From: a virus
IMG/VR virus record: IMGVR_UViG_3300045988_176357
Location: 32,001 to 96,000 of that record
Reading direction: 5' to 3' (one strand)
Length of the DNA: 64,000 nucleotides
A program made the position numbers and the translations under genes. Within the stretch, counting starts at the first letter, position 1, and every line of letters starts with the position of its first letter. The notes below the pieces were generated by a model. It searched no databases. It was not told where the DNA came from and saw only the letters and a list, made by a program, of their open reading frames with translations. Below are positions 17,040-62,352 of the stretch, one piece after another.

Positions 17040-17085
17040 TGTTAGACTATAGATGTACATTGTAACGCATAATGTACTTTCGTAA

Positions 17086-24681: not shown

Positions 24682-25672
24682 TCCGATTTTGCCGAATACC
24701 ATAACGACTGCGCCGTCTGTCAAATCCGCAGTCAACACAATAAATCCGCTTTCATTCCTGTTTTCAGGCAGAGATTACGTGCCGTCATGGTTCATAAATA
24801 TGTTCCGTGGAGCTAAGGGAAGCGAGTGGGAAACAACAGGTGCGCCTGCCAAGTCCGCACATATTGCCGCAAAGGTGCTTGCCGGAGCCGGTGCACTTGG
24901 GCTTGGAGCATGGGGAGCAAGACATCTTATGCACTCCATGAAGCTGGATGCCATAGATAACGCCAATTCAGCTGCTACTGCAGGTGGAAAGCTGTAGAAG
25001 TTGTACAAAAGACCTACAGGTGCCATGGCTGGATATACGCAGGCGGAACAGCGCAAAGCGAAGCAGCTGTAGGAATCTGACAGCAGAGGTGTTGAGAAGA
25101 AAGCCTTTGTAGGTAATGCTGTAAAGTATACCGATCCGTATTCGTTTGCTCTTGGTGTTGTACCTCCTGCCGCATCCTTGCTCGCTCTTGTGGCGTCCTT
25201 TAAGAATGCTGATAAATATTACGATACCAAACTGTCCAAGAAACTTGATCGGGACATTGCCAATGAATAGGCGGAGCGTGCCAGAATCTCCAAGCGCAGA
25301 ATACTTAAGGGACGCGGAGTTCAGGACCTGATTGAGCAGGAAGCCCCTGTGACTAAGACAGCTTCCGAAAAGCAGGGTGTGTCAGGGCCTGTGGTAAGCG
25401 CACTTGGCGGAGCTGTTGCTCTGCTTGCTGCCGCTTCATTTGTAGGCGGGTTCAAGTATGCTCGGAGAAATGATCCGCAGACAGTCAAGTTCAAGGCTTA
25501 CAAAAAGGGCATATAGGCATATAATAAAGCAAGAATAGCCTAGGAGAACGTCGAGACAAAGCCACTCGATCCCAGGCTTATAGAGCTTTTCAATGCCAAC
25601 ATCAACAATAAGAAGCGCCCGCAGGAAATGACGCCTGTTAACAGCACTTCCTACAGAGATGTGTTGATGTAA
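24674..25672 (+). CDS. Hypothetical membrane protein.
   Basis: ATG 24674, frame 2. Track ORF 24647-24997 extended across TAGs to TAA 25670-25672. Confidence 0.4.
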
Positions 25673-43009: not shown

Positions 43010-45319
43010 TTGGCTGTCACCACATTAGGCAGATAGGTAATCAAACAAGCGCTTCCTTAGAAGTACAGGAGCTTCGTTGACTAGCCCCTCACAAAGGCTC
43101 GCCAATAGAAGCTCACTACGCAGCTTGCCAAGGACAATCCATAGGCTTACATAGACATCCTGCAGAAGCTGAATGCCATCGCGTAGTCGACTGTATCTAC
43201 GTACGGCAAAGACACTACCATCACTCTGGATGACATAGATGCTGGAGAGAATGTGCGCAAGATGCATGCTAAGCTCCAGTAGCTGATACGTACTGTTGTG
43301 AACAGGAAAGATCTCACTCCGTAGCAGAAGTAGCAGAAGGTCATCTAGCTGGGTTACAAGTACACTGCACTGATGAAGGACCTTGGATTAAAGGATGCTC
43401 AGTAGCGTCGTACAGGTATTGCAAATCAGATTGCATCTGGATCCCGTGGCAACCCTGTACAGCTTATGCAGCTTCTTGTCGGCGACATGCAGATGCGTGA
43501 TGCCGCCAACAGGGACATCCCTTATCTTGCTACTATGCCGTATGTGGACGGTGATTCGCCTATGTCCTACTGGGCATCGAGCATGTCCGGTAGAAAATCA
43601 ACTTACGATACGCAGGCTGCTACAGGCATGGCCGGTTACCTGAACAAACAGGCAACCAATGTTATTCAGGCAACACCTATAGCTATGCGAGACTGCGGCA
43701 CTACCAATACAGGTGTGCCGGTATCAGCTACAGATCCTTAGAATGTAGGCTCCATACTGCTGCGCCCATGGAAGAACCATCCTGCAGGAACACCTGTCAC
43801 GTAGGAGATGCTGGACTAGGCTTAGTAGGGTGACGAGATTGTGATCCGCAGCCCGAACACATGCAAGGCTCACAACGGTGTGTGCGCTATGTGCTCAGGC
43901 ATCCAGGAAAACGGCAAGCTGCCTGCTGTAGGAAGCTACGTGGCACTGAATGCCATGAAGTCCTTCATCTAGCCGCTTACGCAGGCCGGTGTAAGCTGTC
44001 TGCATCCTGACACAAAGGTAAGTCTGGCTGAAGGTGGATATAAAAGAATAGCAGATATACAGATAGGCGATACTGTAATAGGTTGCGACATAGCAGGTAC
44101 AACTACACCTGTAAAGGTCACCAATGTATTCCATAATGGAATTCAGCCTGTATACAGAACTGTATCTGTTACATAGTCTGGTAAGCACTTGTAGCTCTTA
44201 TCCACACTTACACATAAATGCCTTATGCTGATCTAGGATGCACAAGTTCCAGCACTGCTGCCTATAGGGACACAGGCTAAGAAACGCTATATAGTACTGT
44301 CAGATAGGTCTGAGTAGCAAAAAGCTTAGATAATACAGCAGACATTCGTAGGCGATATATAGACCATAGATATCTAGGTTGACCATCCTGATCATCTGTT
44401 CCAACTTGTTGATTATCAAGTGGTAGCAAATTCGAAGCATGGTTCTGGTATGGGCGGCAAAAAGAGCTAGGACCCAGACGGCTAGGACCAGCCTACAGGG
44501 TTCGACTCCATAGCGCGCATGCTCCTTGTGCCCTCTACATTCCCTGGTGGCGCAGTGCTCTCTCAGGTCGATGGTCGCGTGTCATCTGTACGTCCTGCTC
44601 CGCAGGGAGGCAACTACATTACAGTCGGCACCAATACGGTATATGCGCCACGCGTACGTACAGTAACAGTAAAGCCCGGCGACATCGTGTAGGCTGGAGA
44701 CACCCTTACCAATGGCGTGCCTAATCCCATGTAGGTAGTCAAATACAAAGGTATCGGCTAGGGCAGACATTACTTCACGAACAAGCTTTTCGAGCTGCTT
44801 CCGAAATCCGGCGCAGGCACAGCAAGACGTAATGTGTAGCAGTTCGCCCGCGCCCTCATCAACAAGGTTCGCATAACATCCGACCAGGGTTTCGGCGGCT
44901 ATTATCCTGGCGACATTGCAGATTACGACGATATAGCGTAGAAATGGAGACCCAGAGAGGACAGCAAGATGCTGAACCTCAAGGAAGCCACAGGAAAGTA
45001 CCTGTAGGAGCCAGCACTGTATTACAGCATAGGAACAAGAATAACACCCAAGGTAGCCAAGAAACTGCAACAGTACGGTTACCAGCAGGTGAATACCAAT
45101 TAGAATCCTCCGCCGTTCTAGGCGAAGTTCGTAAGCTCCAAAGCGTTCTCTACTACGTAGAGGCGCTGGTTGCCCAGACTTAACGGAGAACGGCTTAAAG
45201 AGGCTATCTTCGACGCTGCAAGAACTGGAATAACTGACAGTTATGACAGCCCTTCATTCGTCGACAAGCTTATCATAGGCCCCTATAATCCGGCAAACAT
45301 TAAACCAGCAGGAATATGA
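43010..45319 (+). CDS. Multisubunit RNA polymerase beta' subunit, C-terminal fragment, carrying one mini-intein.
   Basis: Frame 2 opens after TAA 42992-42994; start codon uncertain (TTG 43010, or ATG 43262 which lies inside homologous sequence). …SGSRGNPVQLMQLLVGDMQM…YWASSMSGRKSTYDTQAATGMAGYLNKQATNVIQATPIAMRDCGT aligns with beta' …[20 protein letters not shown]…[45 protein letters not shown]. C-terminal GDTLTNGVPNPMQVVKYKGIGQGRHYFTNKLFEL… is also conserved. TGA 45317-45319. Confidence 0.7.
43997..44431 (+). mobile_element. Intein 5, a mini-intein in the beta' trigger-loop region.
   Basis: SFI(TAG)PLTQAGVS|CLHPDTKVSLAEGGYKRIADIQIGDTVIG… ends …YQVVAN|SKHGSGMGG. Confidence 0.6.
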
Positions 45320-45324
45320 AGTGT

Positions 45325-47466
45325 ATGTCTAACAATCTCATCATCGACGAAGGCTATCTGCGGAAAACAGCAGCGAATTAGCCTGGCTAGGGGCCGTCCT
45401 TTGAACAGCAGTTCGGCATCCTTGCGAATGCCCAGATCACCGACAAGTACCCCAGCCTCGGCAACTATCTTGTAGCTGCTCAGCTTCTTGACAAGAGTGA
45501 CGACAACTCGTTCGCCGTGTGCGCTGTTGTGTACAAGCTCGGCAACAACTTCATCTACGTGCCTGCTGTGTTCCGCAATGGAAAAATATTCACCGGCTAG
45601 ATCATGGAAGTTCCGTCGCTGCAGAGAATGCTGCCGTTGTCGGATGCATGGATGAGCTGGGTGAAGAACAAGGACATCGGCGGATAGGGCTAGCTAATTC
45701 CTTCATAGCTCTCCAGGCTGTACGGATAGAATGCATCTTCTGCACGCAGCAGAGAGCCTGTCGATCCGCTCATGAAAACAGCGTCTGTGAACAGTGTCTC
45801 TGTTATGGATACGGCATTGAAGCTCGGCAAGAAGGCTTCCTAGAAGCTCGTCGACATGTTCACCAACATTGACTATCTGAATGCCGCCTTCAAGTATTAC
45901 AGCCCTGAACAGATCGACTCATTCGCAAAGAAGGCTGCACAGATGTTCCCATAGACATAGCCTGTTTAGATCATCTCTGTGCTCGACAAGAAAGCTGCTC
46001 TCCTTACATAGGAACAGAAAAAGAATCTGTATGCCGACGGCTTTGTGGTCAAGTAGGGCAATAAAGTAGACTGGGGTCCCGCGTAGGATTCCATTAAGGC
46101 TGTCGAATATAAGAATCTTCGCTAGGCCTTCGTTAAGCCGCAGAAGTCCTGCATGTGCCAGGTGCTGACTCGGACCGGATAGCTGCAGGATGTAACTTAT
46201 CTTGTAGTTGAGGGTAACTGTAACAGAGATGTCTGTTGCTGCTGTGATTAGTGGGATCCCGGTTCCAGATATAAACGTGGAGTCAGTACTGTTAAACACG
46301 TTGCTCCGGCCAAAGACTCTCCATTCTTCGGCAACAGATAGTACAAGAATGTAATAGTTCAGGACGGCCAGTATCTTACTGTGTAGAGTGTTCCGTGTGT
46401 TCTGCTCAGCAGTATCAAGGATATCGACGTTTCCGCTACAGGTAAGAGCATATAGGGTCTCAAATAGATTCCGTACAACAGCATCCTGCTGACAAAAGAT
46501 GGCTACACGATGTTCGGCCTCAGAGGAACGAAGCAGCCGAACGGAGATTTTGTCTCCTATAATCTCACAGTTCACATTACAGAAGATGACAACCTCAAGC
46601 AGCCGCTGATTCTTAAAGAGTATATTGAAGTACCGAAAGGCAGCCGCATCATCTTCCCCGCAGGCAACTACAATACTGACGGCACACCTAAGCAGGATAA
46701 ACTGCAATAGACACACAAGTCTGTGTACGTGGCTTATGGAGATCTCGGCAGAGCCATCGACGCTTTTGATTCCAAGTACTACAGCAAGCTGAAGGTAACC
46801 AGCGACGGACAGTAGATTTCCATATCCGGTGCCAAATCCAATCCGGCTGACAGAATGCAGGTGAAAGAAGCTGTGCTGCACCTTGTGCGTGACTACGGAC
46901 TCGCTCCTCTGGATGCAAAGGCGATTGTCAAGAAAGCCGGTGCAGGCAGCATACTGAATCCTGTATCAACTTCGTACAGATTATTCAAATCTGCCGCGTA
47001 GATGGTTTAGAGCGACATGTGGAAACCTGCCGACATCGGCTACTCTGAAGTACAGAATGTTCCTCCGCAGGTGACACAGGAAGATATTCAAGGCAAGGCA
47101 CTGCAGGACGAGCGCTAGATGCAGACTGTGCAGCGTGCGGCTGAAGCAGGTGTGAAGTAGGTGTTCGATACACAGACACTTAAGATGCTTGTGCAGGCTG
47201 CTGATCCGCATGAATAGGTACTGTAGGCGCTGCCGGACTTCATGAACACGCTCGATAAGCTGTGCAAGCTGCTGTTCCTTTTCAGATGCCACTTGAGCGA
47301 TATGTAGAAGAAGTACGGAGCTGTGAAGCTCAGATCACTTTAGTTGTCCATCAAGAACACGCTGAATGATCTGTCATAGCTCACGATTTTCCTCAAGCTC
47401 AGAGGTCTCAACAATGGAGAAGCTCCTGATGCAGGAGATCTGCAGACAGGAACTATGATGAACTGA
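45325..47466 (+). CDS. Large hypothetical protein of 713 aa, a portal candidate by position at the head of the morphogenesis block.
   Basis: ATG 45325, frame 1, includes track ORF 46510-46710. About 45 TAGs. TGA 47464-47466. The 320-aa minus-strand standard-code ORF 45919-46881 is Leu-rich and reads as antisense. Confidence 0.4.
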
Positions 47467-47490
47467 TGCCTGTATCCAACTAGAGCGCAC

Positions 47491-47530
47491 CATTCAAGAG
47501 GAGTCCTGTCTTTTAGCGGGACTCCTTTTT
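47491..47530 (+). terminator. Rho-independent terminator.
   Basis: ggagtcc…ggactcc hairpin followed by a T-run. Confidence 0.55.
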
Positions 47531-47690
47531 ACAACCGCCCGACTGGCGATGGCAGGAAGCCAAGCAAATAGTCAGGGCGCAGCTGACAGACACCAACTAT
47601 ACACCTTCTTCCGACCCGATAATTCTGTATGCTGCTCGTATACAGAGAGCATGTCGGAATACAGATACGAGAAAGTTCGTACAGGCAAAG

Positions 47691-48350
47691 ATGCCCGATG
47701 CCTGGCAGGTGTTCACTCTTGGGACATTTGACAACTCGTCACAGCTCAGAGCCTAGGTGGAAGCATGTCTTATCTATGGCCTGACTCCTTAGAAGACTTC
47801 TTAGAAACTGAAATGGCTGACCCCTGTACAGGTAAGACTGTACTCTGACTTGTTCTGTGACCTCACAGGTGTTCAGGCTATATCAGGGTGGTTTTAGCAA
47901 ATGCTGCTGCAGCCAGCCAGAGTCGGTAAATCTATGAACCTGTTCAGGGCCAGAGCGCTCGCACATTACCACTCCTTATAGGCAGCCCTGCACTCTCTGC
48001 GTTTCGGAAACTCTGGAAAGAGTGCCAAGTAGGCTATGGACGCCATGTGGAGAAACTGCAGAAATACGCAGGTTTTTGACTACATAGCCAAGGAGCTTAA
48101 CGTACCTATCTAGGTGTACACCCAGATGATGTAGCAGGCGGTAAAGAATCGGTAGGATCAGGCATTTATGCTGCAGCAGAAATAGGGTGGAGGCTAGTCG
48201 CAGGCTATCATAGATGCGGCGAATATTCTCAACTCCAGTATAAGAGGATTCAGCAGAGCTTAGATACAGCTTACAACATAGCAGCAGAAAGCCGGTGTTG
48301 ACTTCACTACGCAGTACACTCAGTTTATAAAACATAAATCAGAGGCTTAA
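47691..48350 (+). CDS. Hypothetical protein.
   Basis: Frame 0. First ATG at 47691, though the frame is open further upstream. TAA 48348-48350. Confidence 0.35.
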
Positions 48351-48353
48351 TAT

Positions 48354-50087
48354 ATGGGATAGTTAAAGAAACTGGATCAGCTCACAGAATACCAGCTGAC
48401 CAATGCTATTGAGAAGGCGGCTACACTGGCCCTCGGCTCAGACAAGGACAGAAGCTAGATTCTGGCATAGCAGCTTGATCTTGCTGACGTCCCGAAGAAG
48501 CTCACAAAACTTGCGGCACAGGCATTCAATAGAAGGCTTGCTGTAGTCACGCTAGGAAAACGCAATGATTAGCACAAGGCGTAGGACTTCCCGCTTGCCG
48601 ACATCGAAAAGGTAGCTTCACTGCGTGGTGTGTAGCAGCTCGATAAGGTTGCCTCTGTCGGTACTGAGTTTGAGTTCAGAATCAAGGAGCCTGAAAAACC
48701 TGCAATGGTCAAAGCTGCGTCCTTCAAGGAACCACAGCCTGAACCGACTATCGGACAGCTGATGCAGAAGTTGTAGCACATGCTGTAGAAGGAAACCAAA
48801 GCATTCTAGGCGGACTATTACAATCTGATCAATTAGAAGAAAGATCTGGATCGTATGGTCAAGAAAGCCTCTGACATGCTGCGGGATGAGACTAAGCTTT
48901 CCAGGTTGATGTCTACAGTATATGGTGATACATACACTGAACTGTTTAAAGACAAGCTCCCTGAATAGTCTCTGAAGAAATCGGCTGCCTATGCTGTGCT
49001 TCCTGCATCTGCAACTGTTGAGTACGTGTAGAAGACTATACAGCAGGCATAGAATGTGCGATGGCGCCAGAAGTCTCTGTAGAAGAAAGCTCAGGCTCTG
49101 GATGTCTTCTGCACGGAAGCTGTAAAGACATAGAATGCTGTAAGGCAGGGGCTGCTCAGCGGGCTTATTAAAAATGCAGATGGGTATACGGTTGTCAAGG
49201 ATGTCCTTGCAAACATGTTGTCCGTACCTCTGATGGCAGGTATTAAAGGCGGTCAGGGTGCCTTGTAGACGGCAGGAAGCATACTTCGTTCCGGTACAGG
49301 CTCTCAGAGATATGCTGTAAATCCTTAGTCTGCTATTACAGGTGCTCTGCTGAATGCGGACAGATATGACGACAAGGTGATGCGCCTTGCTGACATGCTT
49401 GCAGACAGGGACTTCAAAGACTTCCCTGCACAGTAGATATAGAAAGCTGTGTAGGATGTCATAGTTTAGAACCCCTCATATCTGTCTCCGAGATTCAAGC
49501 AACACCTTAAAACAGCTGTTGCAGCTAGACTGATGCAGGGGGGCAAGACCAATCAGGCATCTCAGGCAGCTTAGGCCGCTACTGTAAAATCTATTACTTC
49601 AGCCGACAGGTAGCGTGCACAGGCTGCAGCTGTCAATGCAGTTAAAGGCATGTCTCCTGTGTAGACTTAGGGAAGTGTAGCTGACCTTGTTCCTGACTTG
49701 TCTAAAGCAATGTAGAGACTGAACCTTGGAAACACTGTATTTGTCGGAAATCTTGGACAGAACTGGTAGCAGTTCTCCAGAGATATCGGCTAGGCCAGAA
49801 AGCAGAACTAGGCTAATAAGTAGAAAGATGCTGAAGCCAGACTCCAGGCAATCAAGAACTACATGTCCAACAGGCAGAAAGCTATCAAGTACCTGGCCAA
49901 TAAAGCAGCTGCAAATCCGAAGCTCCAGAAACAGCTTGGCATTCCCAAAAGGACAGGAAAGAACATCAAAGGACTTACTGATCTGCGACTGTAGAATAAA
50001 CAACCTGCAGTCAATTTGGCTACAGCACAACTTGCAGCTGCCAGTGCACCTCAGCAGTAGGCGCTCTATGCTGAGATTGTCTAGTAA
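48354..50087 (+). CDS. Alpha-helical or coiled-coil protein of 577 aa, in the head-morphogenesis region.
   Basis: ATG 48354, frame 0, about 35 TAGs, TAA 50085-50087. Confidence 0.4.
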
Positions 50088-50098
50088 GAGGTAATGCA

Positions 50099-52027
50099 AT
50101 GATACAGAAAAGAATCGTCCCTTAGGCTTCCGATTTCGGAGGATAGGAACCTGTACAGATACTTAAAGTCAGTTCCAAAGGGTTGGATAAGTCTGCATCC
50201 ATGCAGAAACGTGCAGCAGCTTTCGACGACATCATAGCAGATCTGAAGCCGATGCCCAAGAAAGCGTACCTGCACGTTATCACTACTGGAGCGATGTAGC
50301 ACTTCGGTATCAACAGGAACTGCTTCGTAGCAGGTACTATGGTTGTCACCTGGAATGGCACGAAAGCAATCTAGCACATTCGTGTGGGTGATCTTGTGCA
50401 GAGCGGCAGCGGTTAGATGCGTAGGGTTAACGACACATCTGCCAGGTGGTACAAAGGTCAGCTTGTAAAACTGACAGCAAAGAACGGATAGATCGTTGTC
50501 ACCATGACATAGGATCATCCGGTACTTGTTCTCGATGCCAGCTAGAAGTGGGGCGACTTTGTTTCTGCCAAGGATATCAAGCCTGGAGCTAAGTTGCTGG
50601 TACCTGACGACAAAGTAACATAGACCGCACTGAAATACAATATAACTGTAGACAAGGTGTAGTTCACTTATACAGAGTCAACTGTCGTCTATGACCTGAA
50701 GATCGAAGTCGAACGTACCTTCTGCGTTCCTTTTGTCGTGCACAACTGCGACGGCTGGAATTAGGATGCTTTTGTGTACAGACCTCCGATGCCTAAAAAT
50801 GCATCCTGCAAGTAGATTCAGCTCGATGGCGGACTCAGGAAGTACCATTCGACATACCTGGACAAGGCAGCTGTATATCAGGAGCACCAGACTGACAAGT
50901 AGAAGTCAGGATAGGTGAAAGCAGCTGTGTACAATGATAAGATGCACAGAGGCTAGTTGCTCATTGAAGTGGACACTGACAAGTGGGCATAGCGGCTGAA
51001 CAAGAAGGCGAACGGCCAGGACATATTCCTTTCGGTTGGAGCTTCGCTGAGAACCGATTATTGCACCGCCTGCGGGAATGCAGCGCACACGCTCGACTAG
51101 CACTGTTAGCACATCAAGAAACATGCAGGAATGGTGCTGTCAGACGGTACCAAGATCGGCATGATAAACGATGCTCCCAAGTTCTATGACATCTCAGGAG
51201 TGAACGTACCTGCAGACCAGATGGCATTCGTGCTGCGCAAGGTAGCATCAGGCGACAGTGCAGCCAAGGCCATTGAAGCTGCGAGGTTCCAGGCAACAAG
51301 ACCTCCTATGTCATTGTCAAAGGCTGCAAGACTTCTCGGTAAACTCGCGTAGCTGTAGAAATGCATTCAGTGTGAAGCACAGGACGATCCGATCTTTGCT
51401 GACTCTCCGGAAGCTGTGGAAGATTTTCTAAAAGCGGTATAGAATTACGACGCCGACTAGATCATCGATCAGTGCAACCGCAAGGCAATCCTTCTGTCAC
51501 CGAAAATGCTCTTTAAGATCCTCGGCAAGGAATCTGATAATCAGTAGCTGTTCAATACCTTTGCCTAGAGCTGCCCTTGCAGTGGTCAGCACCTCATGTA
51601 GGATATGCAGCAGGACTAGGAATTCAAGCCTATGCTCAGCGACGGCAGTTTCGATTCTGTGCTTCCTGTAGATCTCACTTTATAGGATGTTCTTAAACAG
51701 TTCATACCTTAGTTTGGTGTCAGCAGGCCTGCTCTGAACGGCAAAGCTATACGAATATAGATAACATCCGCCTAGCCTTAGAAAGATATGCAGCAGTTCA
51801 AAGACAAACTGCAGGACAGCATGCAGGACTCAGAATCGAGTTAGGACGATGATTCCGGTGATCGACAGAATGAGGATTCAGACAAAGAGGAGGATATGTA
51901 GAAGAAGGCGTCTCTCGTTGGAGACCAGTTCAGAAGAACATATGCCAGATACGTTCTGAGTTTTGCTTAGCGTAACAGTTAGGACACCTGCATGTTAGCC
52001 ATGCAGAAGCTCGCCAGATATAAGTAA
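50099..52027 (+). CDS. Head-morphogenesis protein of 642 aa carrying a mini-intein, with a zinc-binding CxxC…H…H region and an acidic C-terminal tail.
   Basis: ATG 50099, frame 2, includes track ORF 51131-51352. TAA 52025-52027. Confidence 0.45.
50321..50746 (+). mobile_element. Intein 6, a mini-intein.
   Basis: …HFGINRN|CFVAGTMVVTWNGTKAIQHIRVGDLV… Block B VTMTQDHPVLVL. Ends …VVYDLKIEVERTFCVPFVVHN|CDGWNQ (canonical HN+Cys). Confidence 0.6.
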
Positions 52028-52077: not shown

Positions 52078-53334
52078 ATGAGTATGCTTAACAAGAAAGC
52101 CGCTTTTCTCCACGATCTGCTTGTTCAGTCCGGAGCGCTGCACAAAGTTGCAGGCGGCGAATAGATTACAGAGAAGAAGCTCGATGCTCCGCAGCCCACT
52201 ATCGGCGACAAGATGCAGAATGAAACCGAAGAGGCTACGAATGGCAACTATGCTTCCGATCCCAGTGTGAACGCCGAGGTCAAAGGCACTGTCGAAATGG
52301 TAGAGAACAAGATCGAAGGCGACGATGACAAGAAGGCTGAAAAAGACCTTGCAGAGACCGGTACTGATGTGAAAGACGTATGTCCTGCAGGTATGCCTAC
52401 AGGAACTCCTGCTCAGGTTGCAAAGTCTGCAGCTCTCAAGCAGAAGCTCACGGCCTGCATCAATGCCCAGATCGAAAAAGAAGCCGCTATGAAGAAAGCA
52501 GCTGAAGAAGCTGAGCTTGCCAAACAGGCTGCAGCTAAGCAGGCTGAGAGCAATGAAGTGATGACAGCTACCGAAGTTCTTAACAAGGTTGCATCTTTCA
52601 CTGAGGACAAAACAGCTGAAGAACTTGCAGCGCTTACTGACGACATCGAAGTCAGCTTCAAGAAACTCGCTGCTACCAATCCGCTGTTCAATGTTGCCTG
52701 CGAACAGGCTCTGATTCGCAAGATGGCAGCTGAGGTTGAAGCTCTTTCAGCATCTGAAGGCATTCCTCCGGAAGAAGCGGCTGCGGCGCTCGATGCTGCT
52801 GTCGCTGAAGATCCTGAAGCGATGAGTGAACTTACTAACGAGGCTGAAGGTGAGGCTCTGTCTGATCTTGCAGCTGCGGAACAGGACTCTGCTGCTCTTA
52901 TGGACGGACTCGACCAGACCGCTGCACAGCTCTCTGAAGCTCTTGGTGAACCCGTTACAAGTGACGATATTCTCGCGGCTGTCGATGAAGTCACTGCTCA
53001 GGCCGAACAGCTTGGAGTTCCTCCGGAAGCTCTCGTTCAGGCTGCTGCAGCTGAGATGGCTCAGGGAGCTTAGATCTCTCCTGAAGATGCAGCTGCTGCT
53101 GAACAGCTTGTCAGTGATGCTGCTGCTCAGGGTGTTTCTCCCGAAGAGCTTGTCGAAGGCATTGCTCAGGCTGAAGCTGGTGCTGCCCCTGTCGAAGGTG
53201 CGCCTGCGGAGGCTCCTGCAGCTGAACCTGCACCCACTGAAGAGTAGCTCGCAAAAGAAGCTTGCCTCAGAAAGCTCGCATCTACGAAGCGCGGCGCCAA
53301 TCTCATGAAGATTCTTACTGCCAGCGGCAAGTAA
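52078..53334 (+). CDS. Scaffolding protein: acidic, Ala/Glu-rich and alpha-helical.
   Basis: ATG 52078, frame 1, includes track ORF 52213-53073. Only 3 TAGs. TAA 53332-53334. Sits directly upstream of the decoration and capsid genes. Confidence 0.5.
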
Positions 53335-53344
53335 GGAGCGCACA

Positions 53345-53752
53345 ATGTCACAGGACTTCCAGAAGATCGCTGAAGAAGCGATTAAACAGTGCGCAGAATA
53401 TGAAGCTCGCATTAACCAGCTCCAGGAACAGATTGCTCTCACCAAGAAGGCAAATCTGGCCGATCCTGAGCTGGTTAAGAAGTCCGTGGAAGCTCTCACT
53501 AAAACAGGAGGTATCACGGCATAGCAGGCAGACGAGACAGCTCAGTTGCTTGCCCACGACCCAAATGCCTCCTTAAGAGCTATTCAGGCTCTGTGCGACC
53601 GCTACACTGACGCAGCTCCCATTGTGAAAAAAGAATCCGATATATAGGGCGGCAGGCTTGTTGATACATTCAATAAGCAGGCATCGGCGGCTCCTGTTGA
53701 AGACGCATACGCTGCAGTTGCCCGTGTCCTCGGACTAAAGATGAATAAATAA
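53345..53752 (+). CDS. Hypothetical protein.
   Basis: TAAGGAG RBS, ATG 53345, frame 2, 2 TAGs, TAA 53750-53752. Confidence 0.4.
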
Positions 53753-53763
53753 AGGAAACTATT

Positions 53764-54348
53764 ATGGCTATTACAAGGTCTGTTAAACAGCAGTACGAGT
53801 ACTACGTTGCTGTTAAGAGCGGCGTTCTTGATGAGACCAACTGTCTCATGCACACGGCTGTGCTGAATGAGAATGCCGATAAGGTTGTTCGCGGCTCTGT
53901 TATCTCTCTGAATGCTGCGGGCGAATTCGTGCTTGGGCTTACTGAAGGTTCCGGCAATCTGTATCCGATGCCCTGCTTCGCGAAGAAGAATGCGTTTGAT
54001 CCGGATGTCATGACCGGCGCTGTCGGCAGTGCTACCGGCGAAGTTATCGCCAGTTCTACTGTCGGTAAGAAGATGTCCGCCTATGTTGCTACGGGTGCAT
54101 TTGAAATCGAATCCTCTGAGTTCGATAAGGATGCTACGTATGCGATCAATGCTGCACTTGTCTGTGCTGATGGCGACAAGCTTGGAAAGGTCACTCCCGG
54201 TGGTGCGAACGCTGTGTACGGAGCGAAGACTGTCGTCGGTATCGTCAGTGCGCTTCCGTTCCGCTCCAAAGCCAGCCTGAACGTGAACGGCACTGCTGTT
54301 AACCGCATCTGCTTCTGGTCGGTCTTCTTCCCGCCGAAGCGTGGTTAA
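53764..54348 (+). CDS. Putative head decoration protein (gpD-like), 194 aa.
   Basis: Complete standard-code ORF with zero TAG codons. AAAGGAAA RBS. Placed between scaffold and capsid genes. Assignment rests on position and a loose resemblance to lambda gpD only. Confidence 0.4.
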   Translation: MAITRSVKQQYEYYVAVKSGVLDETNCLMHTAVLNENADKVVRGSVISLNAAGEFVLGLTEGSGNLYPMPCFAKKNAFDPDVMTGAVGSATGEVIASSTVGKKMSAYVATGAFEIESSEFDKDATYAINAALVCADGDKLGKVTPGGANAVYGAKTVVGIVSALPFRSKASLNVNGTAVNRICFWSVFFPPKRG

Positions 54349-54404
54349 TCCGCTGTAAGATAAACCAGGGGAGCGTGTCTCCCCGATAACTATAGGAACG
54401 CAAT

Positions 54405-55418
54405 ATGTACACTTCCGATCAGATTGCTGCCATCAATCAGGAGTTTAAAGACAAGCTCCTCAGCGATGACTCCGCTATGGTGAAACAGGCGGGACTCGCA
54501 GGCACCACATATTTCCGTACGCGCATTCGCTAGAATGCCGTATACCGCAAGCTTCTTCCTCCGGTCTCCGTTACGGCTGACAACTTCGATGTGAATGAAG
54601 CCTCCGACCTTCCCAGCATGATTGTCGAGCTCGACATCAACTCCGAAGGTGCAATGCAGGTTCCGTTTGAAACGGCTACCACCGGCGCAACCTTCAACGG
54701 ACGCAAGGCGAGATGTGAATTCGGGCGCATCATGACGCCGAAGTACGAGATCGACAAAATCCGTCTTACCGGATACAAGATGCCGATCCTTGACATCCTG
54801 TACGACCTCATGCTCAAAGACATCATGGATGTCGAAGACGAAGCGTGGGCGGCTGTCAACCAGGAAATCGTCGGCAATGCTGATAACCAGACCGATCAGA
54901 TCGCTGAATTCGGTCTCCGCCGCGCTATCCGCCAGACCTGGGATCGTGAAGGCGTTGCCGGTCTCGGTGCTGCGGCTGCCGGATTGCTCCGCACGAAGGG
55001 CAAATTGAAACCGTCCAAAGGACTCATGAACGAACTTCTGTACATCAGAATGGCTGAGTGGGATCGAAATACCGTTGGCGGCGATATGGCTCAGGACATG
55101 CTGTTCGATGGTGTCACGACCGGCAAGCTGAACAAGCTCGATGTCCTCGTCACCTCCAAGGATACTGTCTGCTCCGAATACGATCTGTGGGTGTTCACTG
55201 ATCCGCAGTTCTATGGTGCGAACTACACGTACCAGGATGTCAGCATGGTTACGGACGAAAAGGATGGAATCTTCCTGAACTTCTTCGCCTATGAGACCAT
55301 CGGCGGTATCGTTGTGAACAGAGCCGGTGTCTGCAAGGTCACGTACGATGCGAAGAACATCAACGAGTGCACCTTCTGGACTGATCCGGTTGATGCTTCC
55401 GACGCCATCGGTGGCTGA
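54405..55418 (+). CDS. Major capsid protein (probable), 337 aa.
   Basis: ATG 54405, frame 0, a single TAG, then track ORF 54591-55418 ends at TGA. Followed immediately by a strong terminator. Position after scaffold and decoration genes. Confidence 0.5.
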
Positions 55419-55439
55419 TTGAAATCAGGTTGCTGATTA

Positions 55440-55472
55440 TAAAAGCCCTCCGTAACAGGAGGGCTTTTTTTA
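55440..55472 (+). terminator. Rho-independent terminator.
   Basis: aaagccctcc…ggagggcttt followed by T7. Confidence 0.7.
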
Positions 55473-55520
55473 TGTCCTTAATGTGGTAAACTGTAAGAAA
55501 CCAACAAGAAAGGAAGTATT

Positions 55521-56309
55521 ATGTCAGTAACTATTCAGACCGTCATCACCAACAAGAGTCGCGGAGTTCGTTCCCTTATTGTTTCCAGATCAAAGACGTA
55601 CAGTCTCAGAGCAGGAGAGACAGTAGTTCTCGATTACGATATCTGGTCGTACCTCACACCTACAGTAAAACGGAAACTTGAACTGGATGTGCAGATGGGA
55701 AGACTCGAGATCACAACAAGGCTGTTCACAGACAATGCCAACATCTCTGTCGACCCTGATGGAACATATAAGATTGCCAACGGCGGACTTGAGGTCGCCA
55801 AGCCCAAAGAGCAGGTGAAAGAAAATAAGCTCCCGGCAGCCAAGGCTGACAAGGCCACCACCAACGGAAAACTGTTTGACAACAGTGGTACGGTTATGGC
55901 TGACAAGAGCTCGTCTGTCATGCAGAAAGCCATCGGAGCCAAGCGTGTTGAGGCTGGTAATACAGATCAGACAGAACAGCCTGCACAGGACAAAACAGGA
56001 TTCACTAAAACCGACATGAGCTCCTCGGGTCTTATGCATACTATGAACAATCTCGAACCTGCACATTCATCCAGCGTGTTCAAAGCCACCTCGACAGATA
56101 CAACCAAAGCAGAGGAAGAAGCCAAAACAGAAACAGAGAAAGAACTGTCACGTCCTGAATACATCGACGAACTGTATGCAGCTAAAGATTACACAGCCAT
56201 CGCAGGAGCGCTGACAGAGTGGTATCCTGGAACAACGTTCACAAAGGCTTCTATCAAGAAATGCAACAGCTATGCTGAACTCAAAGAAAAGTACCCTGTG
56301 CTTGCGTAA
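55521..56309 (+). CDS. Hypothetical virion protein, 262 aa, with no TAG codons.
   Basis: Complete ORF in the standard code. AAAGGAAG RBS. TAA stop. Followed by a terminator. Confidence 0.5.
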   Translation: MSVTIQTVITNKSRGVRSLIVSRSKTYSLRAGETVVLDYDIWSYLTPTVKRKLELDVQMGRLEITTRLFTDNANISVDPDGTYKIANGGLEVAKPKEQVKENKLPAAKADKATTNGKLFDNSGTVMADKSSSVMQKAIGAKRVEAGNTDQTEQPAQDKTGFTKTDMSSSGLMHTMNNLEPAHSSSVFKATSTDTTKAEEEAKTETEKELSRPEYIDELYAAKDYTAIAGALTEWYPGTTFTKASIKKCNSYAELKEKYPVLA

Positions 56310-57014: not shown

Positions 57015-57281
57015 ATGAAAGACAAAGAGTAGAAAGTACCCGGTACCGTTGTGTAGATTAAGTCGGTTGAAACCTGCGATGAAGCTTGTGAAACTTGCAC
57101 CCAGTAGTGCTCTGAGGAGAAGCTTCAGGCTTTGTAGCAGGCTTTACAGTACTCACAGTTTTAGGTCATACAGAAATCAATTCTGCTTGTTGCAGTAACA
57201 GGTAAATTACAGTGTATGATCGGTACAATCCAAATAATTCTCCTCATCGGGCTTATGATCCATATGTTTTTCTTCATGTGA
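57015..57281 (+). CDS. Small membrane protein with a Cys motif and C-terminal transmembrane segment. Holin-like size.
   Basis: ATG 57015, frame 0, TGA 57279-57281. Confidence 0.3.
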
Positions 57282-57284
57282 TAA

Positions 57285-57680
57285 ATGCGGTACACAAGAA
57301 CCTAGCTGGCTAACCACTATAACGTCACAAAAGGAAAGCTTCGGCGTATATTGAAAGCGCTGCAGCTTCAGCCTGTGTAGGTTGAACGTACTGCTACAGG
57401 GCGTCCTGTGTTCTATTATGCCGACAGCACTGTGTTGTAGATCGACAAATACCTGGATGCTCTTATGCAGAAGAAACAGCAGTAGCTTGTAAAGTGCTGT
57501 ATATGTAAGCAGAGTGTCAGTAAGAGCAGTATGATCGGCGGCAGATGCCAGATGTGTTATGTGAAGAAGTGCTGTGCACCTATTATGTACGGAAAGTAGT
57601 TCTGGAACAGGAAGGTAAACGCACAGACTGTCAGCACAGCTATTCGTTATCTGCAGTCAATGTTACCTGGCTCCACGTGA
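57285..57680 (+). CDS. Putative DNA-binding protein (HTH-like N-terminus, Cys-rich zinc-finger C-terminus). An overlapping frame-2 ORF, 57545-57823, is an alternative.
   Basis: ATG 57285, frame 0, TGA 57678-57680. Confidence 0.3.
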
Positions 57681-58072: not shown

Positions 58073-58492
58073 TCAGGATGCATCACCAAGCAGCTCTTTT
58101 ACACAGCATCTTTTGCTGTGTCTGATTTTGTTCATGTGGTAGTGAGCTGCACCGCATCCTCTGCACACATACAGCTGCTTCTTGTGGAAGTCACTAGATA
58201 CATACAGACTGTCTATGTTGAACAGCAGCTGACGCACTTTGCCTGACACTGATCGCTTGTTCCAGTCAGCAAGGTCGCATGAAGTGTGCCACAAAGCGCA
58301 ATCAGCCGTGTTGCATTTCACTTCAGCGCCTTTTCCGTTCTCATAGACGTGCACTTCAGGAATACTGCCGCAGAAAGGACAAGGCAGAACATGCTTAGGC
58401 AGCTTGGCTGTGCCTATTTCGTACTTGTCTGTACCTGGCACTTTGATGCCGTTCCTGCGGAAGATCTTATCTATGACTGTGTGTTTGTGCAT
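58073..58492 (-). CDS. Lar-family-like (restriction alleviation) zinc-ribbon protein with a second CxxC ribbon.
   Basis: Standard-code ORF on the minus strand with no TAG. LPCPFCGS…C…C resembles the Lar CPFCG motif, followed by YVCRGCGAAHYH. Confidence 0.5.
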   Translation of the reverse strand: MHKHTVIDKIFRRNGIKVPGTDKYEIGTAKLPKHVLPCPFCGSIPEVHVYENGKGAEVKCNTADCALWHTSCDLADWNKRSVSGKVRQLLFNIDSLYVSSDFHKKQLYVCRGCGAAHYHMNKIRHSKRCCVKELLGDAS

Positions 58493-58596
58493 GCTGTTCC
58501 TGTTGGTGTCTCTCCTGTGAAGTATAAAAGGGGCCAGAGTGCTGCAGGAGTTCAGTACTCTTGTCGACTGGCCGGTCTAGGCCCCTTGGAATTAAC

Positions 58597-58924
58597 TGGC
58601 GCTCCCACTGAGATTCGAACTCAAGATCTGGCGGATTTCATTGATAATCGAGGACTTACAACAATCCTGATATCTCTGGACTATATCATCTTCTCCGTTT
58701 CCAGAGAAGGAGCGCTTCGGACTTTCGTCCTACTCCCTTGCGGGATAGTCTCTGAACCCTTTCCGGGCTCCATAGCTTTCGCCTTAGGAGATCCCTTGAT
58801 CGGCTGCTGATTGCCTTCGGCGTTACCCGTTAAGGTGTCCCAGCAATTCACTTTCTTGTTCGACACACCTCGCGGTGTGAAGCTCCAAACAGAGTCCGCT
58901 GTTCTGCCATTAAACTATGGGAGC
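58597..58924 (-). tRNA. Amber-suppressor tRNA, anticodon CUA, split by a group I intron. Exons are 58924-58891 and 58638-58597.
   Basis: The spliced product folds as a cloverleaf. Acceptor GCUCCCA/UGGGAGC, U8, D-arm GUUU-AAUGGCA-GAAC, anticodon stem GCGGA/UCCGC, loop C-U-C-U|A-A-A giving anticodon CUA, T-arm UUGAG-UUCGAAU-CUCAG, discriminator G, encoded CCA. Confidence 0.7.
58639..58890 (-). mobile_element. Group I self-splicing intron (252 nt) inside the suppressor-tRNA anticodon loop.
   Basis: 5' exon ends in U, which pairs as U•G with the internal guide GGAG (a 4-bp P1). The intron ends in G (…CAAUG). P7-type core strands UUCAGAGACUAUC and GAUGAUAUAGUCC are present. Confidence 0.65.
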
Positions 58925-58931
58925 ATAATAT

Positions 58932-59007
58932 TGGTTGCGGGGACAGGATTCGAACCTGCATATCCAAGCTTATGAGGCTTGTCGGCAACCGTTGCCACCA
59001 CCCCGCC
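58932..59007 (-). tRNA. tRNA with anticodon CAU (Met, or Ile2 if lysidine-modified).
   Basis: Reverse-complement sequence read directly: GGCGGGGTGGTGGCAACGGTTGCCGACAAGCCTCATAAGCTTGGATATGCAGGTTCGAATCCTGTCCCCGCAACCA. Anticodon stem CAAGC/GCTTG, loop CTCATAA. T-loop GGTTCGAATCC. Acceptor GCGGGG/CCCCGC with a possible 1•72 mismatch. The D-arm register is slightly irregular. Confidence 0.6.
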
Positions 59008-59405
59008 ATATGTACACCTTAGTGCGCCTTGGTACTCCTTGTTGTTACATGACTAATCTACTGCAGACGTCGAAAAACAAAACAACTAACGCACTCAGCT
59101 CTAGTAAGCAGAAGCATACAAAAGCAATAATAAAAGGACACAACAATGTAGTTAATCACCAGCTTGGTCGCACTGATACTTGCTATATTCGGCGGGTTTG
59201 GGTATATGGTCAGGCAGACCGAGAAAGGATTCAAAAGGCTCTAGACCAGAATCGAAACCTTGTAGAAGAAATTAGATACGACAGTCGATTAGGACACATG
59301 TTAGTAGAGGCGCTGTCATTATGTAACAGCAGTCTCATTCCAAGAGCAGATAAGTTAGCTTACGTTGTCCATACAGCGCCTGACGCAGATATTAGAGAGC
59401 AAAAA

Positions 59406-59831
59406 ATGAAGTACGCGTTGCTTGCTTGTTCTATATTGTTGTTTGGGTTTCTGTTATCTTGTGCGCCCTTTGGCTCTACTGTATAGCCGCAGCCGAAGTA
59501 GCTGACAGTTGTCTAGCAAATAATACAGTAGAACAAAGACAGCATACGCAGCATATCGAATTAGATAAATCAGGACTATTAGATAGGGTATAGAACACAT
59601 AAACTTATCACATAGGTGCAACCTGAATCCGATCTGCACTATAAATAGCTTGGAAAGATTGTTTAGTCGATTGTGAAGTAGGTTTAGCAACAGGCCAACA
59701 AGACAAAGACTCAGCGCAAAGACAGAGCTAGAACTGCAGCTGTAGCAGTGGTAGCTATAGTTTGCCTGTGCGCTATAGGCAGATCTTGCAAAAGGGTAAG
59801 GGCTATATGCAGATCAAATAGAGATTCATAA
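59406..59831 (+). CDS. Putative lipoprotein (signal peptide plus LLSC lipobox), Gln-rich.
   Basis: ATG 59406, frame 0, about 14 TAGs, TAA 59829-59831. Weak RBS. Confidence 0.25.
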
Positions 59832-59928: not shown

Positions 59929-60837
59929 ATGGCTGATATCTGTATTCCTTAGGTCACAGCAGGTGCTGGTGGTGTTGGTGGAGGACAGGGAGCCGATGGT
60001 CAGGCGTCCCTGATGGCTGACGGACACTATGCCACATCATATGGTGTACCTGTTATAAAGATCACCACAGGAATGACAGCCTAGTACACACTGCAGCTGA
60101 CCAGAGACATGTAGGGAACGATACCTGCATAGCTGTAGGACATGCATATAATTCAGTTCATGTGTCTGGCAGACGGCATGCACGGCAAGGCGCTGTTTCA
60201 AGTACCACTCACATATCTCGGCAACGGACGTGTACAGCTGCACCTCACACCGGCATAGGTCGACTACAGACCTGGGCTGCATTATGCATAGATACATTGC
60301 TATGATGAAAACCAGGCATTACGGCACGTGTTCAAGTGCTGTCTGTAGCTATAGAAATCTTTTGATGGCAGCCACATCGACTGCAGACGACCGATAACCA
60401 TTGCCTAGGTTCGTATGTAGCTGTATGATACGTGCTCAAAACAGAATCAGCTGCTGAATGACCTGTAGTTCTCCGACATCGTTATAGCAAGATGTATCGG
60501 CAGAGCTGTACAGGACTGGAACTAGATGCCTCCGACATTAGCCAACGCTTAGACAGCAGCTTCCTTCCCTTTCCCTGCCAACCTGTGTTCCGGCGCAGCT
60601 GCACATTGTCTGAGAATGGCCATGTACAGATACAACAGGAACGGTATGCGTCACTCCAATGCCGGACTTACATTCGATGACAACGATAAAGGAGCTCTTT
60701 ATGCCAGCCTGGCTGACAAAGCTATGACAGACTGGAAGAGCTGGATAATAGCCAAGAAGAGCTAGCTGAACATGCTGTAGTGCATGGGAAGCATTTCAGA
60801 CGGATTCATGTAGGGTTCGTAGCCTTGGTGGAGGTAA
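59929..60837 (+). CDS. Hypothetical protein.
   Basis: AAGGA RBS and ATG 59929. Frame 1. About 25 TAGs. TAA 60835-60837. Confidence 0.25.
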
Positions 60838-60838
60838 C

Positions 60839-61678
60839 ATGTCCTCTCCGTTCGATTCCATAAAGGTATTTGTGCAGCCGAATGGCACCAGAGTCGTCAG
60901 CTGGCAATTTACACATGGAGTATAGATTCCATAGACCGCTACCATAACTGTTCAGAGAGCACGAGCTGGTGGCTAGTGGTAGACATTGGAAGAGGGGCTT
61001 CCTGTCTCTTACTGCTACTCTGATACTACCGCCTGGAACAGGAACAAATATCAGAATGACTATTACAGGCTGATACTTCAGACACAAGACGGTCAGAGCT
61101 ACACATCAGATCCGCAGCATACAGGTATGACTCTCTCATATCCTTACTATTCATAGGCTGCGAATCTCATAAGACTGAGCTAGTTGTAGATACAGAGAAC
61201 AGGAAGATAGGGGTATCTGCTGAAAAAGATAACCTATGGACCAAAATGTCCTGTATGTCAGCAATTCGGTGACGATCATCCTGTAAACTAGCACTGTCCT
61301 CAGTGCCTTGGTACAGGTAAAAAGGGCGGGTACTATAAAGCGATTCCTTTAGGTGTTCTGTAGCAAGGATAGTCAGCTGACCAGTCTGTAGCCATGTCCG
61401 GGCAGTAGGTATCATAGACATTGACTGTGAAATGCACTGCATGGCCGATAATACAGCACGGAGATGTGTGGACAGATAAATATACAAGTCTCAGATACTA
61501 CATAGATAAGATACAGGTCGCTTCGAAATTTAAACATGTGCCTTTGATATATACATTACAGATGCATTTGATATAGCAGTCGGATATAATGTATACTGAT
61601 AATGCTGATCAGCTTATTCAGGAAGCACATGTTTAGTACAGCAACCCTGACTGGGACAAGGCCTTCGGTTAGTTATGA
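60839..61678 (+). CDS. Hypothetical protein with a CxxC…CxxC zinc ribbon. The 3' end may be over-extended into an AT-rich region.
   Basis: GGAGG RBS and ATG 60839. Frame 2. TGA 61676-61678. Confidence 0.3.
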
Positions 61679-61740
61679 TATTTACAGACTACACATAGAA
61701 AAGCACATTTCAGAACGGTTACGCTCAGCAGTACCGTATC

Positions 61741-62352
61741 ATGAAGTACTTCAAGGATCTGCTCAATAACTGGTTTGCAGATAAGAGAAACATAAAGGAC
61801 TAGCGCCTTGTCAGTCTGCTGTATGATGTTAATGGGAATCTGAATAAGGACTGCTTCAAGACAGGTACTGCATTCAATCCTGACGGCACTTATGCAGGTA
61901 CTACACCTGCTGTTGTTGTCAGTCTTGGCACTGTCACATACCAGAACAGACCTATTAACAGAGCAGGCAATCCCTAGTTCCTCAGGAATCCAATGCAGCC
62001 GCCTGTAAAATAGTGCAGATTCAAGCTCATTCCGATTCAAATTACCGTCATTACATAGAGTTGTGACGGTACTATCTTATTAGCTGAACTCATATAGCTG
62101 TTTCTTGCTATGAACAGTTAGGTTATACAGCAGGACACAAATGCTCTAAGTTTCGTCAACGTGAACTAGATAAGCAGTCCACAAGCTGTACAGCCCGGAT
62201 CAGGAGGCAACGCGAAACAGCTGTATGCATCTACCATATCTGTGTCTACTATGAGTGTACTCACTTGGACAACAGATACACAAGGACCTGTGTTCAATGG
62301 TTACAGCATGCGGAATGCGGAGCTCGGCAATATTAAGGTAACTAACAGCTGA
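61741..62352 (+). CDS. Hypothetical protein.
   Basis: ATG 61741, frame 1, about 9 TAGs, TGA 62350-62352. Confidence 0.35.

Follow-up and report, generated by a model that had tools for sequence, protein, structure and literature searches.

Why does a phage that uses a reassigned stop codon in almost every gene keep this codon out of the genes of its head? The question is raised by a 64,000-nucleotide stretch of viral DNA (positions 32,001 to 96,000 of IMG/VR record IMGVR_UViG_3300045988_176357), the whole of which is called the window in the following, and in particular by five consecutive genes at 52078-56309, called the block, which include the genes of the major capsid protein (MCP), a scaffold-like protein and a decoration-like protein. 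In-frame TAG codons are found 6 times among the 1346 codons of the block as compared to 623 times among the 18,420 codons elsewhere in the window (Fisher p 8e-13). A first-pass annotation made from the letters alone had noticed this unevenness and had offered two readings: either amber suppression is inefficient and the most highly expressed proteins avoid TAG, or translation of TAG-rich genes is gated by the availability of a suppressor tRNA. Comparison with related genomes indicates that TAG is read as glutamate and that its scarcity in the block is conserved, and points to translational selection on the bulk-expressed head genes as the probable cause.

The reading of TAG in the window

The window tiles into plus-strand genes only when TAG is treated as a sense codon, with TAA and TGA as the sole stops. 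The resulting 62 credible plus-strand genes comprise 19,766 codons; 59 of them contain in-frame TAG, 629 altogether, and the 61 complete genes end with TAA (31) or TGA (30). In the standard code few long open reading frames (ORFs) are found. The block genes had been taken for the only long intact ones, which does not hold, since 36099-37676 (525 aa, the longest standard-code ORF of the window) and 7745-8740 (331 aa) are longer or comparable. Other reassignments were tried and rejected: TGA as sense lengthens ORFs on both strands but yields no coherent tiling, and TAA as sense does not lengthen them, so that TAA remains a stop. MCP homologues are found on contigs of 150-187 kb and the window therefore constitutes about one third of a large phage genome; it is part of a phage of about 170 kb from an uncultured clade that is distantly related to Salmonella phage Arash.

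Which amino acid does TAG specify? Window genes were aligned codon by codon with their orthologues in related contigs retrieved via the MCP, namely the recoded genomes L001 and L002 (near-identical to each other), L003, L004 and L005, and L006, L007 and L008, which use the standard code, in-frame TAG being absent from them and TAG serving as stop. Aligned TAG codons pair mostly with GAA and GAG and not with CAG. Opposite the TAG codons of the window, the three standard-code relatives have Glu in 33% of cases, Asp in 13%, Ala in 9%, Ser in 8% and Gln in 5%, which is the profile of a Glu codon, and the log-likelihood of this comparison is -844 for Glu and -922 for Gln, a difference of 78 nats in favour of Glu. 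Of 54 TAG codons in columns that are invariant in L006-L008, 30 fall on Glu and two on Gln, although Glu makes up only 6% of such columns; invariant columns likewise point to Glu for the TAG codons of the other recoded relatives. The single TAG of the MCP gene (codon 43, nucleotides 54531-54533) stands in a column where six relatives have GAG or GAA and L003 has TAG. At the conserved TAG columns of an independent gene, 19151-21025 with 30 TAG codons, 16-19 of 21 distant homologues have Glu. Among these homologues a minority has Gln, and Glu and Gln alternate among close relatives at otherwise invariant Glu columns, which suggests that Gln at those columns is a code-15 translation of the homologues' own TAG codons. 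Composition agrees as well: Glu amounts to 5.7 per 100 codons when TAG is counted and to 2.5 when it is not, and if TAG were counted as Gln instead, Gln would make up 8.2% of codons. The comparison of the RNA polymerase (RNAP) with bacterial beta' structures in the PDB contributes one clearly informative column (GEVKKPET, with TAG opposite E), the remaining TAG codons lying in variable positions. As standard-code relatives, invariant columns, the independent gene and composition all agree, these alignments argue strongly that TAG is read as Glu, not Gln, in the clade of the window.

The first-pass annotation had assumed genetic code table 15, in which TAG is Gln. This is the wrong table: TAG sites do not match Gln in the standard-code homologues, and Gln codons were consequently dropped as denominator for TAG usage. 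A broad survey found that phages with a code differing from that of their host show only TAG to Gln and TGA to Trp reassignments, and in the literature searched TAG to Glu is not reported for any phage. A separate question is whether the window uses a code already recorded for cells.

Peritrich ciliates read both TAA and TAG as Glu in their nuclear code (NCBI table 30). The window shares TAG as Glu, as judged computationally, and differs in that TAA is kept as stop (31 of 61 genes end with it). The ciliate code is moreover cellular and nuclear, whereas the window presents a suppressor tRNA carried by a virus in a presumably standard-code bacterium.

Two details of the gene set should be added. 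Translations of the ORFs 17072-17329, 17407-17958 and 58391-58810, the last one opposite a tRNA gene, were excluded as junk. The stretch 17072-18108 contains no credible plus-strand gene, its plus-strand ORFs giving Cys/His-rich junk; a minus-strand ORF at 17296-18108 carries six TAG, and the stretch may be a minus-strand gene or non-coding. PHROG and Pfam scans left most genes of the window unnamed, including 55521-56309, 62395-end, 19151-21025 and 59929-62352, and for 62395-end there was no PDB sequence match either.

TAG is nearly absent from the capsid block

With Glu as denominator, the contrast becomes steeper. In the whole window Glu is encoded by 629 TAG, 301 GAA and 197 GAG, TAG accounting for 56%. 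In the block TAG makes up 6 of 117 Glu codons (5%) as compared to 623 of 1010 (62%) elsewhere (odds ratio 0.034, p 4e-35). When TAG was shuffled 5000 times among the Glu codons, the lowest share of any five-gene set never fell below 0.26; the observed value is 0.05. Across all 62 genes, TAG is distributed unevenly both per codon (chi2 182, 61 df, p 5e-14) and as share of Glu codons (chi2 270, p 4e-28), so that the gene-dependence claimed originally persists after genes were called anew, and the counts on which it had been based (3 TAG in 418 codons, 0 in 194, 1 in 337 and 0 in 262) were reproduced exactly. Within genes the position of TAG is uniform, with neither a 5' nor a 3' gradient. The block consists of the following features:

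52078-53334, plus strand: scaffold-like protein of 418 aa, rich in Ala and Glu, assigned by composition and position; 3 TAG (codons 29, 332 and 390), 39 GAA and 15 GAG, TAG being 5% of Glu codons
53345-53752, plus strand: small head-block protein of 135 aa with no assigned function, present in all relatives; 2 TAG, 8 GAA and 2 GAG
53764-54348, plus strand: capsid decoration or cement-like protein of 194 aa, assigned by predicted fold and Foldseek; no TAG among 9 Glu codons
54405-55418, plus strand: MCP of HK97 fold, 337 aa, assigned by profile, tblastn and structure; 1 TAG among 19 Glu codons
55441-55468, plus strand: terminator-like hairpin with an 11-bp GC-rich stem and a T run, 23 nt past the MCP stop
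55521-56309, plus strand: protein of 262 aa without assigned function, adjoining the MCP gene; no TAG among 20 Glu codons

The genes that serve for comparison are TAG-rich:

43010-52027, plus strand, directly upstream of the block: an RNAP beta' fragment and four further genes, TAG 64-79% of Glu codons
43010-45319, plus strand: the RNAP beta' fragment itself, with a mini-intein
3885-6767, plus strand: collagen-like tail fibre, TAG 26 of 42 Glu codons
12716-14440, plus strand: second collagen-like tail fibre, TAG 14 of 18 Glu codons
29988-37889, plus strand: giant multisubunit-type RNAP beta/beta' gene of 2633 codons with 64 TAG and three canonical inteins

A density of one TAG per 20-25 codons had been ascribed to fibres, RNAP and large internal proteins. 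For the fibres and the giant RNAP gene this is too high (1 per 37-41 codons); densities of 1 per 18-22 are reached in 43010-52027 and 59929-61678. The TAG-rich genes upstream of the block encode the RNAP beta' fragment and homologues of Arash virion proteins, none of them a demonstrable fibre.

Could the block simply offer TAG little opportunity, its proteins being poor in the recoded residue or in GAG codons, from which TAG arises by a single G-to-T change? Such a compositional explanation could point to the Gln-like content, 4.1% in the block and 8.5% elsewhere when the residue is measured as Gln, and to the GAA-rich capsid genes of L004, L005 and L007, which contain fewer GAG precursors. 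With the correct amino acid, however, the block turns out to contain more Glu than the rest (8.7% versus 5.5%, the scaffold-like protein reaching 13.6%). Furthermore, TAG/(TAG+GAG) is 0.15 in the block and 0.79 elsewhere (p 2e-17), while GAG/(GAA+GAG) does not differ significantly between block and rest of the window. We therefore give this explanation next to no weight.

What do the block genes encode? The identity of the MCP is secure. The protein matches the major head protein family phrog_2522 (E 2e-5) and the annotated MCP of phage Arash (tblastn E 1e-14, 25% identity), and an AlphaFold2 (AF2) model of an 85%-identical homologue (pLDDT 75) matches 304 capsid entries in the PDB at E<=1e-3, including HK97, with HK97, T5, D3 and other capsids at E 1e-9 to 1e-7 in Foldseek. 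For the 194-aa protein, the AF2 model (pLDDT 69, pTM 0.67) found as top PDB matches Sf11 9ocb_K, TW1 5wk1_K, BB1 8pkh, FCWL1 and phiCD508, all of them capsid decoration or stabilising chains (E 3e-3 to 5e-2, probabilities 0.9-1.0), suggesting with moderate confidence a decoration-like function. The scaffold-like protein has no family match and has orthologues in 7 of 7 distinct relatives. The 262-aa protein is without family matches in PHROG and Pfam and shows no similarity to the major tail protein of Arash.

Arash (OQ632216), the nearest cultured annotated relative, resembles the window in its HK97-fold MCP and in the syntenic order upstream, where an RNAP subunit is followed by several virion structural proteins; three of the four genes after the beta' fragment in 43010-52027 are similar to Arash 'structural proteins'. 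Its proteins are nevertheless very distant from those of the window, and BLASTP of the decoration-like and the 262-aa proteins against their positional counterparts in Arash found nothing. A search of a viral-contig set returned no relatives of the MCP. Around the block, a scan for sigma-70 promoters gave nothing above chance, and no other terminator-like site in the 10 kb scanned is as strong as the hairpin behind the MCP gene.

The contrast is conserved despite synonymous turnover

Is the scarcity of TAG a peculiarity of one genome? The MCPs of four further recoded genomes are 85%, 73%, 71% and 63% identical to that of the window, and the share of TAG among Glu codons in block and flanks is 0.07 and 0.40 in L001, 0.09 and 0.66 in L003, 0 and 0.19 in L004, and 0 and 0.27 in L005 (each p<1e-10). 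The overall level of TAG differs three-fold among lineages (flanks 19% to 66%) and the block is near zero in all of them. At conserved residues, synonymous differences amount to 0.49-0.55 in the block and 0.57-0.63 in the flanks; between relatives, GAA is freely exchanged for GAG and vice versa in the block. Since synonymous turnover in the block is high, TAG had ample opportunity to appear there and its absence points to selection. Strong conservation of the protein does not by itself keep TAG away either: the non-capsid genes 47466-48350 and 59929-60837 are 80% identical to their L001 orthologues, yet 79-95% of their Glu codons are TAG. The scarcity of TAG in the block is thus not explained by lack of time, recent import or protein conservation.

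The possibility of recent import deserves a closer look, as the capsid module could have been acquired from a standard-code phage and TAG could be yet to accumulate. That mobile DNA could look like this is illustrated by two TAG-poor stretches elsewhere in the window:

36099-37622, plus strand: LAGLIDADG homing-endonuclease/Hint-like ORF inserted directly past the catalytic ADFDGD motif of RNAP beta'; no TAG among 29 Glu codons, ATA and AGA/AGG (AGR) usage ordinary for the phage
7679-8740, plus strand: tail protein with an F5/8 type C (discoidin) domain; 1 TAG among 14 Glu codons, ATA and AGR usage likewise ordinary

The first looks like mobile DNA and the second shows a similar pattern. The block, however, is syntenic and orthologous in every related genome examined, its divergence from relatives is comparable to that of the flanks, about 50% of its synonymous sites differ from the recoded relatives with TAG still at 0-9%, and among standard-code MCPs no match closer than about 50% identity was found. 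Recent acquisition of the head genes is therefore very improbable.

The standard-code relatives add a further aspect. GAG, as share in capsid genes and in flanks, is 0.47 and 0.89 in L008 (p 3e-13), 0.10 and 0.26 in L007, and 0.55 and 0.73 in L006. As the same genes avoid GAG in relatives that use the standard code, the special codon regime of the capsid genes seems to predate recoding.

Codon usage beyond glutamate and probable translational selection

The block differs from the rest of the window not only in Glu codons. ATA makes up 2% of Ile codons in the block and 38% elsewhere, GTA 6% and 24%, AGA plus AGG 29% and 56%, and CAA 0% and 12%. The bias is found within several codon families (Ile p 9e-8, Val p 7e-7, Ala p 2e-5, Leu p 1e-4, Arg p 2e-3). 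Outside the block, it can be followed as a gradient: in the 44 non-block genes that have enough Glu codons, the TAG share decreases as non-Glu codons are used in a more capsid-like manner (rho -0.46, p 0.0016), a correlation with codon adaptation that the first-pass annotation had proposed to look for, and the share of TAG rises with that of ATA (rho 0.53, p 3e-4).

How could expression level shape the use of a reassigned stop codon? For every TAG, one and the same phage tRNA species would have to compete with release factor 1 (RF1) of the host. The cost would consist in slower decoding, truncated chains and a drain on a small pool of charged tRNA, and it would grow with the number of times the codon is translated. 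Selection would purge TAG, together with the poorly served ATA, GTA, AGA/AGG and CAA, from genes expressed in bulk, and proteins present at hundreds of copies per virion would retain GAA and GAG, while in low-copy genes TAG would be tolerated or even favoured. The immediate neighbours of the block speak for such a mechanism, since adjacent virion genes are TAG-rich and thus expected copy number discriminates whereas membership in the virion module does not. Translational selection of this kind, with bulk head genes keeping the host-decoded GAA and GAG and the rest relying on the phage tRNA(CUA), is in our judgement probably the explanation. The corresponding proposal of the first-pass annotation, that highly expressed proteins avoid TAG, has thereby become the best-supported one, through the conserved avoidance, the parallel bias in ATA, GTA, AGR and CAA, the gradient across genes and the preference for GAA in relatives; abundance itself enters this argument as an estimate.

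Selection of this kind on synonymous codons is the classical case for highly expressed genes, phage major capsid genes among them, an example being codon deoptimisation of the T7 capsid gene (PMC5592923). The window resembles the classical case in that the bias lies in the most abundant proteins, extends over several amino-acid families and is conserved in relatives. It differs in that the disfavoured codon is a reassigned stop, read by a viral tRNA and preferred in the rest of the genome.

It could also be imagined that what is selected against is not cost but poison. Shell fragments terminated by RF1 could interfere with assembly, and TAG would then be barred from polymerising proteins at any level of expression. 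The TAG-poor set would fit, as it comprises the lattice-forming MCP and the decoration-like and scaffold-like proteins. Moreover, the nucleotide following TAG is T in 14% of cases as compared to 26% after GAG, a depletion that is weakly consistent with avoidance of strong termination contexts and hints that termination matters. Toxic truncation would not explain, though, why the same genes avoid the sense codons ATA, GTA, AGR and CAA, nor why they prefer GAA in standard-code relatives, and TAG is abundant in further virion proteins that polymerise or form oligomers, such as the fibres. We consider it rather unlikely as the main cause.

Several points weigh against translational selection as a complete account. 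The abundance ranking of the block proteins is deduced from protein identity, and two of the five genes (53345-53752 and 55521-56309) are without assigned function; the window, moreover, covers only about one third of the genome. Lineages also differ in the gradient: in the window, 62395-end is codon-adapted with a TAG share of 32%, whereas L003 has a TAG-rich orthologue (29 of 45). TAG poverty is not determined by expression level alone either, as 7679-8740, 24674-25672 and the LAGLIDADG insert are TAG-poor without being codon-adapted; the first and the last of these imply that TAG-free stretches are not all due to expression level. Finally, the model leaves unexplained why TAG exceeds GAA and GAG together elsewhere in the window, and it is probable that TAG is in addition favoured by a separate advantage or by a directional bias.

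The suppressor tRNA and the question of gating

The excess of TAG outside the block leaves room for a regulatory role. In the window and its relatives the following tRNA genes are found:

58597-58924, minus strand: predicted suppressor tRNA(CUA), exons 58924-58891 and 58638-58597, found with the intron option of ARAGORN
58932-59007, minus strand: tRNA(CAU) with a G1xA72 mismatch, adjoining the suppressor tRNA
L001 14583-14658: syntenic tRNA(CUA)
L003 13840-13914: syntenic tRNA(CUA), intron-less
L004 16817-17164: syntenic tRNA(CUA), with intron

The anticodon loop of the tRNA(CUA) of the window is split by a 252-nt group I-like intron, which matches the whole Rfam model Intron_gpI with 31 bits (gathering score 50; E 1e-5). 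The exon ends with CUCU and the intron with AAUG, which can be compared to the group I rule of exon U and intron G. Default ARAGORN runs and Rfam runs at the gathering score miss the intron-containing gene; the ARAGORN prediction and the group I-like match together bear out the first-pass annotation, which had described it. For recoded jumbo phages, tRNAs with introns have been reported (PMC13037316).

Could this intron serve as a switch? TAG-rich genes would be locked until the suppressor tRNA is transcribed and spliced, the block would be exempt, and TAG richness itself would be selected. TAG is indeed the majority Glu codon outside the block, beyond simple mutation balance, the suppressor gene carries an intron of a putatively self-splicing type, and recoding has been proposed by Borges et al. 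to gate late and lysis genes (bioRxiv 10.1101/2021.08.26.457843). The capsid genes, however, are late and would be expected to be among the gated ones, and neighbouring virion genes of the same orientation are TAG-rich. TAG occurs in 59 of 62 genes including RNAP subunits, and no partition into early and late genes is seen in the window. In addition, the suppressor tRNAs of L001/L002 and L003 are intron-less and the distribution of TAG in these genomes is identical in kind, which implies that the intron is not the cause of gene-dependence. The parallel avoidance of ATA, GTA and AGR would not be predicted either. The unexplained excess of TAG keeps some room for a lock, with the exemption of the capsid genes unaccounted for; as the cause of the contrast, gating by the suppressor or its intron, as first suggested, appears improbable, though less so than toxic truncation.

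Where does the suppressor come from? The intron-less tRNA(CUA) of L001/L002 and L003 are nearest to tRNA-Glu, though weakly. The intron-containing ones of the window and L004 have unrelated bodies. The tRNA(CUA) of the window has G1-C72 and its isotype is not assignable from sequence: its anticodon-arm pattern, used for a genome scan, picked up Leu, Tyr and Gln tRNAs, global alignment to this biased Leu/Tyr/Gln set was indecisive, and its best phage matches are annotated Asn, Arg, Trp and TERM. Since tRNA bodies differ while all lineages read TAG as Glu, this implies, on sequence grounds, that the suppressor tRNA may have been replaced between lineages with the meaning of TAG kept.

The pairing of tRNA(CUA) with tRNA(CAU) is kept in L001/L002 (in L001 the tRNA(CAU) lies at 14662-14735), and the G1xA72 mismatch is conserved. 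As ATA makes up so much of Ile outside the block and tracks the TAG share, the tRNA(CAU) might be an ATA-reading tRNA-Ile2 rather than a Met tRNA.

Around the tRNA locus some further observations can be made. Called from 58935, one ORF begins with junk and lies over the tRNA(CAU) gene, which is on the opposite strand. Read from an internal start, at about 59400-59831, it yields MKYALLACSILLFGFLLSC..., similar to a lipoprotein signal, and a spanin or lysis gene could be present here; nearby, at 57015-57680, there are small ORFs. Between 57680 and 58590 the window has a largely non-coding gap. Relatives instead have minus-strand gene clusters between head block and tRNA locus (L001 12882-14477, L004 13709-16685, L005 13570-17024), which include GIY-YIG homing-endonuclease-like ORFs.

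Inteins and the putatively mobile insert of the RNA polymerase gene

The LAGLIDADG insert shows that TAG poverty can be reached in another way. The insertion at 35922-37622 begins with a 177-nt leader containing the near-consensus pair TTGACA-N16/17-TATATT and an AAGAAGG ribosome-binding site before the ORF, and the ORF runs in frame into ...TVNLHVP and ends with QD|T, not HN|S/T/C. Given these features, the insert could be an intein, a homing endonuclease carried by an intron, or a degenerate intein that has a start of its own. It has the look of mobile DNA, either recent or self-expressed under the host code, and this route to TAG poverty is a second one, unrelated to that of the capsid block; the search of the viral-contig set found no relatives of the insert. 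The discoidin-domain protein 7679-8740 is a candidate for a recently exchanged receptor-binding module.

In the giant RNAP gene, TAG accounts for 64% of Glu codons in the exteins and for 53-60% in inteins 1-3. The density of inteins is unusual, with three in the fused beta/beta' gene, one mini-intein in 43010-45319 and one in 50099-52027, which encodes a head-related protein. In relatives larger versions that contain LAGLIDADG are found, the L001 orthologue having 950 aa as compared to 642 aa in the window.

Relation to known recoded phages and implications

How does the window compare with phages that are known to recode TAG? Code-15 gut and jumbo phages (crAss-like, Lak and Garnet/Topaz phages) likewise carry in-frame TAG in most genes with TAA and TGA as stops (bioRxiv 10.1101/2021.08.26.457843; PMC9523058; PMC10607447), and as in the window they have their own tRNA(CUA), close standard-code relatives and an uneven distribution of recoded codons among genes. 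In phAss-1 the terminase large subunit (TerL) and the tape measure protein carry TAG, and the MCP is not listed among the recoded proteins (PMC10607447). In code-15 phages, however, TAG is Gln, whereas in the window it corresponds to Glu and is the majority codon for its amino acid. Published gene-level tests, moreover, sought enrichment of recoded codons, as in lysis genes, and not depletion in the most abundant capsid proteins. The picture of early genes in standard code and late genes recoded, as in the model of Borges et al., appears to be the opposite of what is found in this third of the genome, with late capsid genes in standard code and RNAP and virion genes TAG-rich.

Taken together, the window very probably belongs to a clade with a code that the literature searched does not record for viruses or bacteria and in which TAG is the principal Glu codon and TAA and TGA are stops, with two codon regimes within the genome, a suppressor tRNA that has been replaced, and databases that translate TAG as Gln. 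The two regimes would be bulk head proteins written in host-decoded codons and the rest depending on the phage tRNA(CUA), and possibly on the tRNA(CAU) for ATA. Public databases appear to translate the TAG codons of these phages as Gln, giving a wrong residue at several percent of positions; annotation with code 15 would mistranslate about 3% of the residues of the clade, including invariant positions in catalytic regions and in the capsid.

TAG to Glu adds a new amino-acid assignment to the ways in which phages recode stop codons, and the suppressor tRNAs of the clade are candidates for orthogonal amber suppressors that insert Glu. The finding also qualifies the view of recoding as a mark of late structural genes, because here the most abundant late proteins stay in standard code. 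The split within one genome can serve as a natural experiment for the cost that decoding of a reassigned stop codon entails: Glu appears as TAG in low-copy genes and as GAA or GAG in the genes of highest copy number, in lineages whose TAG shares range from 19 to 66%. If the reading of the split as translational selection is right, TAG codons moved into or out of the capsid genes by engineering should alter burst size.

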